In this document: one piece after another, positions 3,983-9,911 of the stretch
Numbering within the stretch: position 1 is the stretch's first letter
How the letters are laid out: every line of letters starts with the position of its first letter
From: Candidatus Iainarchaeum sp.
Lineage (GTDB): Archaea > Iainarchaeota > Iainarchaeia > Iainarchaeales > CSSED10-239
DNA length: 32,000 nucleotides
Direction: 5' to 3'
Assembly (NCBI GenBank): GCA_028700115.1
Contig: JAQVTI010000005.1
Span: 22,166 to 54,165 of the forward strand
Notes under the pieces: generated by a model
Databases searched by the model: none
The model's input: only the letters and a program-made list of their open reading frames with translations
Told to the model about the DNA's origin: nothing
Translations under genes and position numbers: made by a program

Positions 3983-4252
3983 CTATAAACTACTTTTGAA
4001 ATCTTTTCCAACTTTAAAAGTAACTGTCTTAGAAGCTTTGATTTTCATTTCTTTTCCTGTTTGTGGATTTCTTCCCATTCTTGCAGCTCTTTTTTTAACA
4101 TTGAAAGTTCCAAATCCAATTAATTGTAATTTTCCATGTTTCTTGATTATCTTTTTCATTACATCCATTTCCATGTTCAAAAGTCTTTCAAGTTCTGCTT
4201 TAGAATAATCAGAATTTTTTGCCATTTCTTCAATTAACATTTTTTTATTCAT
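3983..4252 (-). CDS. hup: HU-type (bacterial histone-like, DNABII) DNA-binding protein
   Basis: The 89-aa product aligns end to end by eye with HU. It has MNKKMLIEEMA at the N-terminus and the beta-arm signature GFGTFNVKKRAARMGRNPQTGKEMKIKASKTVTFKVGKDFK (compare HU GFGTFEVRERAAR.GRNPQTGEEI.I.A.KVP.FK.GK.LK). A GGGGG Shine-Dalgarno-like run lies 11 nt upstream of the ATG. The stop is TAG. Confidence 0.9.
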   Translation of the reverse strand: MNKKMLIEEMAKNSDYSKAELERLLNMEMDVMKKIIKKHGKLQLIGFGTFNVKKRAARMGRNPQTGKEMKIKASKTVTFKVGKDFKSSL

Positions 4253-4400: not shown

Positions 4401-7400
4401 TTATTTTATTCTAATTTCATATCCATAAGTAAAAATATTTTTATCAATTAAATCTATAAAATCAGAATAATCAAAATTAATTATAAAAAATCTATCATTA
4501 ACTTTTTCATATTCTAATTTTTTAATAAACTTATTATTAATATATAATGTAGGTATAAAAATTAGATTTTTCTGAGGATTATATACCCCAAATATATTAA
4601 AAGGCCCATCATTTTCATTATACAAAACATATCCAGAAACTTCATCAAAGTATATAGAATATTTTTTCCATTGATCAGCTCTATTTCTTATATAATTACT
4701 TAGAGGATATTTATCAATCCAATAATGTTTTTCTAAAATAAAGGAATAATTTTTATTATCTTCTAAATTTGGATTTAATCTAATTTGATTTAAGATATCT
4801 TCATAAAGCCAGAAATTTCTATAATTATTATTTTCAGGTTCTTTATAAGGATATATCTTGTTATAAGGATATGAGCTAGTAAATTTAATTTTACTAAAAT
4901 TATATGAATAATTTAAGATAACATCCTTACCTCTATCATTTTCAAAATAAATATAATTAATATTAGTTTGTTCACCATCTTTATTTAATAAATTTCTAGT
5001 AAATATAGTTCCAATTTTTGGAAAATACATAATTTTTAAATCACTAATATCTACAGAACTTCTAAATATTTTTTTACTTAATAAATTATTTTTTTCTAAA
5101 GGATCTAAAAACACATAAAATCCTTCATCATCTGAATAATATGCATACAAACCATATTCTAATATATTATCTTTAGAAACACTAATTAAATTTGATTGAT
5201 TTATATTTGAATTAAGAGGTCTAAAAGAAATACTAGGATCTCCAAGTAAAAAAATAGACTCTAACCCATTTTGTTTATTTTCTTCAGAATTAATATATGC
5301 ATTTTGTGTAAGTCTTAAAAGATTTGATAATTTATTATTATAAATATTTATAGGAAACATATCATAATTAATATGAAGTGAATTATAACTTGCAAGATAA
5401 TTAGATGCACCTCTATCTAAAAACTCTCTTCCTAAATAAACTCCAGTTAGACAACTTTGTGCAAAGATAACAGGTCTATTTTCTAGATATGAATCAATAT
5501 AATCTATTGTAAATAAATCTTTTGTAACTCCAAAAGAATCAGTAATTGCAAATAAATTTGGCCCTCCATGAGATATAAAATAAATTTGATCCATATTATA
5601 AAAATCACTAACTAATTCATCCTTTGAAGGTGAAACTTTAAAAGGATAATAAGATTTTTCTAAAAAGTTTTCACTTTCTGCAATACTGTTTTTAAATAAT
5701 GGAATTTCATCAAATATTTCTGTATTAAATGTATGCACATTATTTAATTTATAATCACCTAAATCTAATTTAAAATCAAAACCAATAGAGTGTAATTTAT
5801 TAATAAATCTATCAACATTAATAATATAAGATTCTGAATCAGGATATAGAATGTGTGTGTATTTTTTTAATAATTCATTTTTATCTTTATATCTTCCATA
5901 ATCAAAATCTAAATTTTTATAATAATATTTTAAATAATCATTAATTTCTTCAAAAGTTAATCTTCCAACATTTAATTCAACATCTTTATCATCATCAACA
6001 TTTCCATAATAAAGATTATCTAAAACAAAAGGAAAATCTGTTAATGATTTAAAATTATTATAAATTTCCATATGAACATCACTTGCTAAATTACCAAACA
6101 AAACATCTGTTTTTACTGGAATTGCATCATAATCTCCTAAAAGTAATAAATAATCAAAAGCTTCTGTAATATGTTCTAACTTTACATTTGTTTTAATTTC
6201 TTTAATTGCTTTAGAATAATCAATATCTGCATATGAATTTTCAAAATTATCAACAATATTATAATCTAAATCTAATTTAGGTAATTTAACTTCTTCAAAA
6301 TTAAAATAATAAGTTCTTTCTTTATCTTTAAATGAATAAACATTTTCTTTTAAAATTGCATAATATGAATCTCCTCTTTTTTCTACAGAATCCACATATG
6401 CAGTTACATTTAATCCATCTCTACTATAAGAGTTATCTAAATTATGAATATTTACATTAAAATGAATCTCTTTATTATATTTTTTTAAATCATTTAAAAC
6501 AGATAAATCTGTCATTTTACGTTTAAAATTATATTTTTCAACATCATTTAAACTTGTAAGATCTAAATCTTCAAAATAAATATCTGAAATTGTAATAAAA
6601 TTAAAATCATTTGAAGTTAAATAGTTTACATTCTCATCAATAAAGCTACCTTCAATTAATTTTGCATGATTTAAAATATAATCATTAAAGTCTTCAGGAG
6701 TAAGATAATTATAATTAAATACATAGTTTAAATTATCTAAACCATCTATTTTAAAATTATACATATTATTTGCATAATTGTAAGAAATATCCCCAGATTT
6801 ATTCTCATTTGGAATTGCACTAAAATTAATTTCCCCAGAATCTTTAAAAATTAATTTTCTTATTTCAGTCCAGTCGTCTTTATCAAAATCATAATAATAA
6901 TCATCAAAATATTCTGTTTTTCCATAACTTTCTCTTATAGGAAAACCAACCTCTAAACCATCATAAGTACACCCATATGTTTTCATAAAAGCTCCAAATC
7001 TATCTACATATAAACCAGTAAATGGAACTTTAAAACACATATAAGGTTTACCAAAAATAAAATTAACTACATTCTCATTAGATGCTTCGATTTTTTTATT
7101 TTCACTAATTGGCAAATTATTATTTTGTGAAATTAAAAAATCATTATACCATATTTTATTTTTAATATCAAAAACAATTTGATCATCTTTATTTAATGCA
7201 GCTCCTAAATTCACATCCACAATATTTTTATAATCTATAACAGAAGAACTTGAATTATAATCAAATAAAGAAACAAAAGGTGTTTCTAAATAAATATCTC
7301 CACCTATAAATAAATTTTTAAAATCATAACCATTTTGTAAATCAAAATCAAAATAATTATATACATTATAAAAATTATTTAATTTATCACAATAATTATA

Positions 7401-9911
7401 GACATTAGGATTACAATTAAAAGTTATAAAATCATAAGAATCACTACTTGCTTTTCTTGAAAACAATAAATCCATTCCAGAACCAACTTTAAAAGACACA
7501 TCATCATCTAATAATTTACTTCCAAGATTAACTTTTTCATTAATTGATTTTTCTTCAAAAAACAAATTATATTGATCAGTATTTACAACTAATGTATTAT
7601 ATTTTATTTCAGGATCATAATTTACAGAAACATTTAAATCTAGTAATTTCTTATTAGCTTTATTTTCAAATATATTACGATCATAATTATAAATTATAGA
7701 ATTATTATTAAAATTTAAAGTAACATTATTAGAAATTGGATCTAATGATCTTACATAAAAATCTATATTTCCATTTGATACTTTATTAAAAACAGAAGTT
7801 TCAAAACTATCTGAAAATTCTTTTTCTGGAAAAGTATTTCTTTGGAAAATAGTATATTTTTTCAAAATAGCATCATGATAAACAACATAATTATCTGTAA
7901 AATAAAATCTAGATTCATCTCCACCTAATCCTTCAAATATATAATTATCAAAAACATAATTTCTAGAAACTTTCTTAAATTCACTCTCACCAATCTTCTT
8001 ATTAAAATTAATTGTAAAATTATGTTTTTCTAATACATTTTGAGAAACATAATATTTATTAAAAACATCATAATAATAAACTGTTTTTACTCCATTTGAA
8101 TTTTCAGAAATACAACTTAAAACAACATACTCATCAGAATCAATTTGTTCTTGAGGAGTAGCATTAGTTTTATCTACAAAAGGATCTTGTTTAATATTAC
8201 AAGGAATATTATTTTCTAAAACATGTTTTTTAGAAGATAAATCTAAAAAAGAAATTTCAAAATTTACAAAATTTTCATTAAACCCATTAAATTTAATTAC
8301 AAAATTATCATAATAAAATAAATAATATCTACTATAAATTTCATAATCATTTATTTCTTTTGAAAACTTCTTATAAAAATCAGAAACTTTAATAGTCCTT
8401 CCTTGAAGTCCAGCTTTATTTACTGATGGTTCTGGATAGTTAACTTTATTATAAGATTCAGATTCATCTACATTTATAAATTCACTAAAAAAGAAATTAT
8501 AAGTATGTGCATTTTTAACAAAATGATTCATATAAGTTTCTTTAGATTCAACAAATGAAAAATCACAAATATAAAGTCCAGTATGCTCATTATCTTCTAT
8601 ACATCTATCATATGTATCTAATTTTTCAAAATATCTAAATTTAGCATAATTTTCAATAGGAACTTCTCTCCAACCTTTTTCTTGAGAAATAAGCTCTCCT
8701 AAATCATTTATCCCTGCAAAATTATCTTCTTTATAAAAATCTAAATCTTCATGTGTTTCTAAATATTTTTCTTCAGTTTGGTCTTTAGGATAAACAACAG
8801 CTCCATCTTTTAAAATATTAATATGCAAAGATTCTAAAGAATTATATATATTATTTAAATTAAATTTCAAAGTTGATTCTTTTTCAAAAGTATAATCTGA
8901 TTTTATATAAGCAATTGCTCTATTTAAATATGCTCTAGGAATAAGATATCTTTTCTCAAGCATACTTTGTAAAGTTTCTTGAGAAAAATGTTTTCCTAAT
9001 TCATCTGGTGTTCTTTTAATTAATGCAATCTTATTTTCTAAAGGATATTTTTCATAATATTTAATAACTTCTTTTTCTTCTAAAGTCAAAGAATCATAAT
9101 TAAAATTATAATTTAGAACAAAAACAGGTAATTTTTCAAATATCTCATAAGATTTAACAGGTTTTGTTCTATCTTCTAAAAAGGTCTCTTTTTTAGAACT
9201 TTTTAAATAAGGATTAATTGAAGGATTATATCTTCCAGATTCATAATAATAATTTTTTTCTAATAAAGATGAAGAGTAAGGATCTAATATTCTTTTTGAA
9301 CTTATTTCATTTTCTTTTTCTTCAGAATAAATATTTGGATAATAAATATAATTAATTGGAGAAGAAGGAGTTAAATTTAAATTTATAAAATCAAAATCAG
9401 AAAAAACCTTTTCAATAACATCAGATGTCTCAAATTCTAATTTTAAATCTTTAACAAGTTCTAGTTCTTTTTTATAATTGTCATAATTATAATTTAGATT
9501 ATCAGAAGTATATTCAAAATCAGGATATTTAGAGTCTTGATTTCTACAAGAATCACAAGATGGACTTGTAAGTAAATATCTAAAAGTTAATTTCTCAACA
9601 TTATTATCTTCAGAATCTATTTGATGAGGAGAATAAAAGGTAATAGGTGAGAAAAAATAATTATCAAATCTATTAGTCATTTGAGTTTCATCTAAAAAAT
9701 ATTTTGTATTTCCTGAAAATTCACTTGCATCTTTTGGAAAATTTAGATTTGAAATATCACTAGAAAAACCAAATATATCTTTAAAAGTATCAACTAAACT
9801 AAACTCAGAAGACATAGATATATTTGTATCAATTGCAAACATTAACAGAAACAATCCTAAAATAAAAACAATTAATATTAAAATATTAAAAATATTCTTT
9901 TTAAATAACAT
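4401..9911 (-). CDS. Giant (1836 aa) secreted or anchored surface protein with a C-terminal-proximal gingipain-like (C25) cysteine peptidase domain
   Basis: A 5.5-kb ORF stays open in DNA of about 25% G+C. The N-terminus is a hydrophobic signal or anchor (MLFKKNIFNILILIVFILGLFLLMFAI). The first roughly 1230 residues are N/D/Y/F/S-rich with no motif I recognise. The C25-like motifs are listed in the next feature. The stop is TAA. Confidence 0.95.
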   Translation of the reverse strand: MLFKKNIFNILILIVFILGLFLLMFAIDTNISMSSEFSLVDTFKDIFGFSSDISNLNFPKDASEFSGNTKYFLDETQMTNRFDNYFFSPITFYSPHQIDSEDNNVEKLTFRYLLTSPSCDSCRNQDSKYPDFEYTSDNLNYNYDNYKKELELVKDLKLEFETSDVIEKVFSDFDFINLNLTPSSPINYIYYPNIYSEEKENEISSKRILDPYSSSLLEKNYYYESGRYNPSINPYLKSSKKETFLEDRTKPVKSYEIFEKLPVFVLNYNFNYDSLTLEEKEVIKYYEKYPLENKIALIKRTPDELGKHFSQETLQSMLEKRYLIPRAYLNRAIAYIKSDYTFEKESTLKFNLNNIYNSLESLHINILKDGAVVYPKDQTEEKYLETHEDLDFYKEDNFAGINDLGELISQEKGWREVPIENYAKFRYFEKLDTYDRCIEDNEHTGLYICDFSFVESKETYMNHFVKNAHTYNFFFSEFINVDESESYNKVNYPEPSVNKAGLQGRTIKVSDFYKKFSKEINDYEIYSRYYLFYYDNFVIKFNGFNENFVNFEISFLDLSSKKHVLENNIPCNIKQDPFVDKTNATPQEQIDSDEYVVLSCISENSNGVKTVYYYDVFNKYYVSQNVLEKHNFTINFNKKIGESEFKKVSRNYVFDNYIFEGLGGDESRFYFTDNYVVYHDAILKKYTIFQRNTFPEKEFSDSFETSVFNKVSNGNIDFYVRSLDPISNNVTLNFNNNSIIYNYDRNIFENKANKKLLDLNVSVNYDPEIKYNTLVVNTDQYNLFFEEKSINEKVNLGSKLLDDDVSFKVGSGMDLLFSRKASSDSYDFITFNCNPNVYNYCDKLNNFYNVYNYFDFDLQNGYDFKNLFIGGDIYLETPFVSLFDYNSSSSVIDYKNIVDVNLGAALNKDDQIVFDIKNKIWYNDFLISQNNNLPISENKKIEASNENVVNFIFGKPYMCFKVPFTGLYVDRFGAFMKTYGCTYDGLEVGFPIRESYGKTEYFDDYYYDFDKDDWTEIRKLIFKDSGEINFSAIPNENKSGDISYNYANNMYNFKIDGLDNLNYVFNYNYLTPEDFNDYILNHAKLIEGSFIDENVNYLTSNDFNFITISDIYFEDLDLTSLNDVEKYNFKRKMTDLSVLNDLKKYNKEIHFNVNIHNLDNSYSRDGLNVTAYVDSVEKRGDSYYAILKENVYSFKDKERTYYFNFEEVKLPKLDLDYNIVDNFENSYADIDYSKAIKEIKTNVKLEHITEAFDYLLLLGDYDAIPVKTDVLFGNLASDVHMEIYNNFKSLTDFPFVLDNLYYGNVDDDKDVELNVGRLTFEEINDYLKYYYKNLDFDYGRYKDKNELLKKYTHILYPDSESYIINVDRFINKLHSIGFDFKLDLGDYKLNNVHTFNTEIFDEIPLFKNSIAESENFLEKSYYPFKVSPSKDELVSDFYNMDQIYFISHGGPNLFAITDSFGVTKDLFTIDYIDSYLENRPVIFAQSCLTGVYLGREFLDRGASNYLASYNSLHINYDMFPINIYNNKLSNLLRLTQNAYINSEENKQNGLESIFLLGDPSISFRPLNSNINQSNLISVSKDNILEYGLYAYYSDDEGFYVFLDPLEKNNLLSKKIFRSSVDISDLKIMYFPKIGTIFTRNLLNKDGEQTNINYIYFENDRGKDVILNYSYNFSKIKFTSSYPYNKIYPYKEPENNNYRNFWLYEDILNQIRLNPNLEDNKNYSFILEKHYWIDKYPLSNYIRNRADQWKKYSIYFDEVSGYVLYNENDGPFNIFGVYNPQKNLIFIPTLYINNKFIKKLEYEKVNDRFFIINFDYSDFIDLIDKNIFTYGYEIRIK
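5232..6224 (-). other. Peptidase C25 (gingipain-like, clan CD) domain, residues ~1230-1560 of the 1836-aa protein
   Basis: Family-typical motifs occur in the expected order. They are YLLLLGDYDAIPV (Y1254), DNLYYGNVDDDKDVELNVGRLTFEE (GRL at 1316-1318), YFISHGGPN (His1448, nt 5568-5570), VIFAQSCLTG (Cys1487, nt 5451-5453), RGASNYLASY and FLLGDPS (1555-1561). The His-then-Cys order and the 39-residue spacing fit the clan CD caspase-like fold. Confidence 0.65.

Follow-up and report, generated by a model that had tools for sequence, protein, structure and literature searches.

A gingipain-family (C25) peptidase domain in a giant, predicted surface-anchored protein of an Iainarchaeum archaeon

The window analysed here is a stretch of 32,000 nucleotides (nt) from a Candidatus Iainarchaeum sp. 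assembly (GenBank GCA_028700115.1, contig JAQVTI010000005.1, positions 22,166 to 54,165 of the forward strand), with a G+C content of 21-27% and with all of its large open reading frames (ORFs) on the minus strand. One of these ORFs encodes a giant, predicted surface protein of 1836 amino acids (aa), and we find that this protein carries a catalytic domain of peptidase family C25 (the gingipain family, clan CD) in which the dyad order, His-Gly and then Ser-Cys, is intact. An earlier note on this DNA had proposed a gingipain-like domain with this dyad, and the proposal is confirmed by a Pfam match, by the invariance of the dyad among homologues, by alignment with the gingipain RgpB and by a structural model. 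Based on these results and on the gene's surroundings, we consider it probable that the protein is a surface-tethered endopeptidase that cuts external, partner or host proteins, as an accessory to a giant adhesin-like locus. The gene and the segments that bear on the family assignment are the following.

4401..9911, minus strand: giant surface-protein gene, 1836 aa, open frame without internal stop; stop codon at 4401-4403
5226..6206, minus strand: Peptidase_C25 catalytic domain, both subdomains, residues 1236-1562 (Pfam, homologue alignment A1, RgpB profile match, AlphaFold2 model, ratio of nonsynonymous to synonymous substitution rates (dN/dS))
6114-6152, minus strand: YLLLLGDYDAIPV, residues 1254-1266, from the translation
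5946-6020, minus strand: DNLYYGNVDDDKDVELNVGRLTFEE, residues 1298-1322, from the translation
Residues 1444-1452, minus strand: YFISHGGPN, which contains His1448, from the translation
5568..5570, minus strand: His1448 (next residue Gly1449), the predicted histidine of the dyad; the same in all 31 sequences of A1 and aligned with RgpB His211
Residues 1481-1490, minus strand: VIFAQSCLTG, which contains Cys1487, from the translation
5451..5453, minus strand: Cys1487, predicted nucleophile; invariant in 31 of 31 sequences of A1 and aligned with RgpB Cys244
Residues 1500-1509, minus strand: RGASNYLASY, from the translation
5232-5252, minus strand: FLLGDPS, residues 1554-1560, from the translation

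Membership in peptidase family C25

When residues 1200-1580 were scanned alone, the Pfam family PF01364 (Peptidase_C25) matched with an E value of 6e-8 and 32.8 bits, above the curated Pfam cut-off of 23 bits, and the match extended over positions 49-373 of the 374 in the profile. No other Pfam family matched the excised domain even at E ≤10, which includes the families of C11, C13, C14, C50 and CHAT peptidases. Similarly, 68 of the 100 nearest neighbours of residues 1200-1580 in a protein language model belong to C25 clusters.

In an exhaustive HMMER search, 1.84 billion representative proteins yielded 31 matches, comprising the protein itself, three other giants and 27 shorter proteins of ∼500-1100 aa; seven of the nine homologues that were scanned are members of PF01364 in their own right. 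We aligned all 31 sequences from this search (alignment A1) and, separately, the four giants only (alignment A2). The homologues in A1 have diverged to 20-40% identity, and nine columns are invariant, among them His1448, Cys1487, Pro1265, Asp1298, Gly1316, Arg1317 and Pro1559. The last five of these residues fall in the motifs LLhGD..IP, D..YYG...D...VGR and GDP, and the invariant columns match the family motifs that the earlier note had given. All six motifs that it had picked out occur in the ORF at 4401-9911 in the order and at the residue numbers that it assigned to them. Its interval for the domain, 5232-6224, corresponds to residues 1230-1560 of the 1836-aa protein, and it was correct in placing about 1230 unrecognised residues before the domain and about 275 after it, regions in which neither Pfam nor the ESM Atlas has a match.

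Searched against sequences of the Protein Data Bank (PDB), the A1 profile found Arg-gingipain as its best match (1CVR, E value 5.4e-6; 4IEF), followed by Lys-gingipain and, weakly, by PorU (6ZA2, E value 0.056). The family profile is needed to see this relationship, as phmmer with the single domain sequence found no match among the PDB sequences. A six-frame search of the archaeon's own genome with PF01364 missed the gene, and the A1 profile recovered it as one copy.

Predicted fold

We built an AlphaFold2 model of the C25 domain on alignment A1, and a second model that covered residues 1100-1836. The domain model has a predicted template modelling score (pTM) of 0.76 and a mean predicted local distance difference test score (pLDDT) of 71, which rises above 90 in the core (residues 1429-1510). 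The best Foldseek match of this model is the Lys-gingipain Kgp (4RBM, E value 1.7e-6), with separases, CHAT proteases and caspases lower. The VIA-align comparison gives the same order, with a Z score of 20.6 over 286 aligned residues for Kgp 4RBM, and Z scores of ∼15 for separases, ∼12 for CHAT proteases and ∼7 for caspases. Among Swiss-Prot entries of the AlphaFold Database, the top matches are Kgp proteins together with two uncharacterised proteins of Archaeoglobus fulgidus, AF_0048 and AF_2167. The fold predicted by the model is the gingipain-type arrangement of two subdomains, of which subdomain B is caspase-like.

Catalytic dyad and candidate specificity loop

Gly1449, which follows the invariant His1448, is nearly invariant in A1. 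Aligned through the A1 profile, the HG pair falls on the YTGHGSE segment of RgpB, which contains His211, and the cysteine falls on DVACVNG, which contains Cys244; His211 and Cys244 form the catalytic dyad of RgpB (PMC9559808). Cys1487 is the sole cysteine in the last 855 residues of the protein and is the sole cysteine kept in all five giants. Based on DSSP assignments of the AlphaFold2 model, His1448 lies two residues past the strand 1442-1446 and Cys1487 two residues past the strand 1481-1485, in a region with pLDDT >90. At the level of topology, this placement of each residue just after a strand in the model is the clan CD arrangement. The earlier note had reasoned that a structure prediction could speak against its assignment if His1448 and Cys1487 were far apart or outside a caspase-like fold; in the topology of the model, they lie after consecutive strands of a caspase-like domain with Kgp as its closest structure.

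The model also suggests where a specificity loop may lie.

5811..5840, minus strand: acidic loop Asp1358-Asp1367, candidate equivalent of the RgpB s5-h5 segment Glu152-Asp163, placed by topology and spacing only

The s5-h5 segment of RgpB lines the active site, and its Asp163 is the charge anchor of the S1 pocket (PMC9559808); the third catalytic residue of Kgp is Asp388 (PMC12385285), and the corresponding acid of RgpB is Glu152. With RgpB numbered from the profile alignment, Glu152 comes directly after the strand with which subdomain B starts, and the next helix has Asp163 at its N-terminal end. In the AlphaFold2 model analysed with DSSP, the strand Y1351-L1355 opens subdomain B and the following helix begins at V1366, so that Asp1358 and Asp1367 take up similar positions. 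All four giants of A2 have the motif YPD that includes Asp1358, and at the position of Asp1367 they have Asp or Glu. With the A2 profile, too short a part of RgpB was aligned for the S1 residues to be mapped. The loop from Asp1358 to Asp1367 is a candidate for the role that the third acid and the S1 anchor have in gingipains, and a P1 preference for basic residues is plausible if this equivalence holds.

Constraint on the domain

The C25 domain is under stronger constraint than the adjoining stalk. We calculated dN/dS by the method of Nei and Gojobori for one pair of genes, the window gene and the gene for its 81%-identical orthologue P0033 in the related locus L008, and obtained 0.14 for the C25 domain, 0.54 (fast) for stalk residues 701-1229, 0.26 for the C-terminus and 0.28 for the whole gene. 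Identity to P0033 is likewise highest within the domain, at 91-95% over residues 1301-1500, and lowest at 53-69% over residues 801-1100. The intact catalytic residues and the purifying selection suggest that the domain is probably an active enzyme.

Architecture of the whole protein

Outside the C25 domain, the protein and its insertion within subdomain B can be divided as follows.

9831..9911, minus strand: N-terminal signal-anchor, residues 1-27, a KK n-region and hydrophobic helix (∼5-27), from hydrophobicity
6225..9830, minus strand: 'stalk' of the ectodomain, ∼1200 residues with much N, Y, D and F, unmatched in Pfam and the ESM Atlas
8592..9134, minus strand: conserved N-terminal module, approximately residues 260-440; 93-96% identity to P0033 and 34-39% to P0003
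5652..5756, minus strand: insertion of ∼35 residues in subdomain B, residues 1386-1420; gaps in at least 27 homologues in A1
4404..5225, minus strand: C-terminal 274 residues; no Pfam, ESM Atlas or PDB match, homologous to the C-terminus of P0003

Residues ∼5-27 form the sole hydrophobic 19-residue window in the 1836-aa protein, and an N-terminal anchor helix is also found in the orthologue P0033, in the giants P0003 and P0005, and in an ORF of the locus L005. Based on this helix, the protein is predicted to be extracellular, in a type-II-like orientation behind a single N-terminal anchor, in agreement with the surface location that the earlier note had claimed. The stalk contains five close pairs of cysteines (119/122, 437/449, 571/600, 833/841 and 959/981), which fit with an extracellular location. 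With its start at Met24, the public gene model of the protein (P0002, 1813 aa) loses most of the anchor (9843-9911), while the upstream ATG at 9911 restores a signal-anchor of two lysines and a helix as in the homologues; the longer start is supported because P0033, P0003, P0005 and the L005 ORF begin with such a helix.

The ESM Atlas returned nothing for residues 30-1190 or 1565-1836, and Pfam returned nothing significant for the N- and C-terminal pieces. The module at residues ∼260-440 is the sole part outside the C25 domain that also matches P0005 and the L005 ORF. This module is apparently helical, and a match to the Pfam KANSL3 helical domain (E value 0.039) is not significant. The insertion at residues 1386-1420 is limited to the window protein and its closest relatives and is modelled with pLDDT <50, and it is strongly kept relative to the 81% orthologue, with a dN/dS of 0.065 over the 35 codons. 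In the model of residues 1100-1836, confidence is low outside the C25 domain; the C-terminal 274 residues have pLDDT values of 30-58 and are not recognisably immunoglobulin-like.

Related giant proteins

The three other giants found by HMMER are P0003 (1828 aa, 40% identity), P0004 (1899 aa) and P0005 (1876 aa). P0003 is homologous to the window protein along its full length, and its gene, like the window gene, is followed by a HisRS gene. P0005 derives from a metagenome-assembled genome (MAG) whose label is uncultured archaeon, and the 1843-aa L005 ORF from one labelled Candidatus Micrarchaeota; the two are homologous to each other throughout their length, and they have in common with the window protein a C25 domain at the same relative position and the module at ∼260-440. 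The layout of anchor, stalk, C25 domain and tail recurs in at least five other archaeal giants (P0003, P0004, P0005, P0033 and the L005 ORF). Shorter C25 relatives are found on contigs labelled Methanophagales and Falkowbacteria. Judged from their sequences, the giants appear to be a small family of anchored archaeal C25 proteins of ∼1.8-1.9 thousand residues with a recurrent, hitherto undescribed architecture.

The gene is an accessory part of its locus

The archaeon's own assembly comprises 965 kb in 47 contigs, with 22.4% G+C and an estimated completeness of 89%. The gene is present whole in two landfill metagenome runs and in part in two wastewater metagenome runs. Upstream of it lie two small polytopic membrane genes and then a block of genes for giants of 2155, 828, 325, 2447 and 1025 aa, three of which share C-terminal similarity; downstream lie genes for HU, HisRS and AlaRS. 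The locus L008, which carries the 81% relative, has the same gene order as the window.

Two near-closed congeners keep the block and its flanks without the C25 gene, which is therefore accessory and varies between strains at the end of this conserved giant surface-protein locus. The two genomes, G004 (one contig, locus L018) and G002 (two contigs, locus L019), have orthologues of g1025, g2447, g828, g2155, g123 and g116 in the same order, and the block runs straight into the HU and HisRS genes, with ∼200 nt at the expected place of the C25 gene. A tblastn search of the two loci with the C25 protein found no match. Identity between the block genes of the window (9999-31350) and those of G004 and G002 is 34-51% for most and 25-28% for the 828-aa gene, and the 325-aa gene had no tblastn match in either genome. 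A conserved membrane partner downstream of the C25 gene was considered and rejected, as the HU gene occupies that place; upstream, the two small polytopic membrane genes occur even in genomes without the C25 gene. More widely, the A1 profile matched none of the 21 other genomes of the same family, and it matched in 6 of the 19 other families of the order.

Two observations concern the downstream genes. The gene directly downstream (89 aa, 3983-4252, minus strand) is of the HU type (Bac_DNA_binding) and occupies the same place in L008, L018 and L019. The AlaRS gene (1-2316) is of archaeal type (TIGR03683, 771 bits, read through the stop with X) and is intact except for an in-frame TGA at 1888-1890 on the minus strand, at the Arg of a conserved PQ..IRF motif. 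The AlaRS gene of L008 is an uninterrupted 894-aa gene with AGA (Arg) at that codon, one A-to-T change apart. An alternative genetic code was considered and rejected, given that TGA ends 74 of 566 long ORFs genome-wide, a frequency similar to that of TAG. A nonsense mutation, read-through or an error of sequencing or assembly would explain this codon most readily, and recoding is the less likely explanation.

Discussion

The function that we propose can be put as a series of predictions. A single N-terminal helix would anchor the protein outside the cell of a small-genome (DPANN-type) archaeon, and ∼1,200 residues of fast-evolving ectodomain would precede a complete two-subdomain C25 endopeptidase near the far end. 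Cys1487 would act as the nucleophile and His1448 as the general base of a thiol endopeptidase, and the loop from Asp1358 to Asp1367 may supply the third acid and the S1 anchor, in which case cleavage would follow basic residues. The targets would be proteins outside the cell, either environmental proteins or surface proteins of a partner or host cell, and the enzyme would not be an obligatory processing enzyme for the neighbouring giants. The adhesin-like genes nearby would be in keeping with action on the surface of a partner or host. In a stronger form of this idea, N-terminally anchored 'protease-on-a-stalk' giants of ∼1.8-1.9 thousand residues would let ultra-small archaea keep an active C25 protease about a stalk's length away from the cell, where it would attack a host cell's S-layer or other surface proteins, and the gene would come and go at the end of the conserved locus as a module for host range or attack that differs between strains; this is speculative and in our view rather unlikely.

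Several results weigh against a surface-tethered gingipain-family endopeptidase. Scanned as a whole, the 1836-aa protein has no Pfam match, nor has it any NCBIfam match; the C25 domain appears in Pfam solely when it is excised, and the precomputed annotation of the database copies is empty, so that routine annotation is blind to it. The shorter homologues do not conserve the stretch from Asp1358 to Asp1367, and it is by topology and spacing only that this stretch is matched with the third acid and S1 anchor of gingipains. No immunoglobulin superfamily (IgSF) domain or prodomain of the gingipain style and no Por or other sorting tail was recognised in the Pfam scans of the pieces or in the C-terminal model; since none of these parts is recognised and the organism is an archaeon, we regard the protein as a member of the C25 family rather than as a gingipain orthologue. 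Finally, neither an SBP_bac_5 oligopeptide-binding protein nor an OPT transporter turned up in the archaeon's own genome, an absence that is unproven at 89% completeness. Given these two absences and the presence of only one amino-acid permease gene (AA_permease_2, contig C18:26279-27439), a nutritional role receives little support.

Gingipains process other surface proteins of Porphyromonas, and the earlier note had raised a comparable role here, as a maturase or sheddase of the other giants. A protease dedicated to maturing or shedding the 2447-, 2155-, 1025- and 828-aa products of the block would account for a C25 gene that is co-oriented with the block at its 3' end, in an order repeated in L008. 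This role is weakened by the congeners G004 and G002, in which orthologues of g1025, g2447, g828, g2155, g123 and g116 are followed by HU and HisRS with no C25 homologue, since giants that exist without the C25 gene argue against an obligatory maturase; the gene is also set apart by the 87 nt upstream of it, an AT-rich gap that follows an oligo-T run. We consider such a dedicated role quite improbable. Were the domain instead a dead, binding-only pseudo-protease that served as an adhesive head on the stalk, the adhesin-like flanks would be expected, and separase-like pseudo-protease domains do have the same fold; the placement of the third acid and S1 residue by topology only would also be compatible with it. 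However, His1448 and Cys1487 are invariant, and Gly1449 nearly so, across 31 homologues that are 20-40% identical, Cys1487 is the one cysteine kept in all five giants, and the domain is under strong purifying selection, all of which make a dead enzyme very improbable.

Self-processing is common among clan CD domains that are built into giant proteins, and PorU, itself a member of the C25 family, was among the weak profile matches. The domain could on these grounds be a PorU-like transpeptidase ('sortase') that cleaves a sorting signal and attaches the cargo, or a purely autoprocessing domain that cuts its own chain. However, the gingipains score far above PorU in the profile search, Pfam detects no Por secretion tail or other sorting signal in the 1836-aa protein, and a type IX secretion system is not to be expected in an archaeon, which the organism is by its AlaRS (TIGR03683). 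Of the explanations considered, we give this one the least credence.

Under the explanation that we prefer, an external endopeptidase accessory to the giant locus, a testable biochemical activity is assigned to a protein that is blank in public annotation. The analysis also defines a small family of similarly built archaeal giants of 1.8-1.9 thousand residues, and it shows that the protease is an optional part of the conserved locus for giant surface proteins of a reduced-genome archaeon. If the protease does act on the surface of a partner cell, which is hypothetical, it would be among the few concrete enzymatic candidates for the interaction of such reduced-genome archaea with their hosts. 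No concept is changed by the finding, as archaeal members of this enzyme family and the fold of the family were known before; the window protein is an unannotated and fairly ordinary new member of C25.

Comparison with known systems

The closest characterised enzymes are the Porphyromonas gingivalis gingipains Kgp and RgpB (family C25 of clan CD in MEROPS; 4RBM, 1CVR, 4IEF). They share with the window protein the Pfam family, a two-subdomain alpha/beta domain, the order of His-Gly and then Cys, the motifs LLhGD..IP, D..YG...D...GR and GDPS, and an extracellular location, which for the window protein is predicted, although identity is just 13-16%. The catalytic domain of gingipains follows a prodomain of ∼200 residues, whereas that of the window protein follows ∼1,230 residues, and gingipains use a type IX secretion tail and anchoring to anionic lipopolysaccharide (A-LPS), whereas the window protein has an N-terminal helix. 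None of the IgSF or haemagglutinin/adhesin domains of gingipains is recognised in the window protein, which has instead the ∼35-residue insertion in subdomain B and an archaeal host. More distantly, the caspase-like subdomain is shared by separase (C50), CHAT proteases and caspases (C14), in which His and Cys likewise follow consecutive strands, but their structural scores are below that of Kgp.

For the nanohaloarchaeal SPEARE proteins a protease domain has been proposed, and its assignment as a serine protease is disputed (PMC10266531). Like the window protein, the SPEARE proteins and other giants of DPANN archaea are very large surface proteins of ultra-small archaea that are secreted or anchored at the N-terminus, and such giants are thought to mediate contact with a host. 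We found no sequence relationship between SPEARE and the window protein, whose protease domain passes a curated family threshold and a test of its fold.

[quoted passage not shown] The Thermoprofundales C25 proteins and AF_0048 and AF_2167 are, like the window protein, archaeal members of the C25 family that are predicted to be extracellular. The peptidases of sediment archaea have been discussed as nutritional enzymes of free-living heterotrophs, and those that matched are of 300-900 aa. The window protein, unlike these, is an anchored giant of 1.8 thousand residues, encoded in a genome of ∼1 Mb beside a giant adhesin-like locus.

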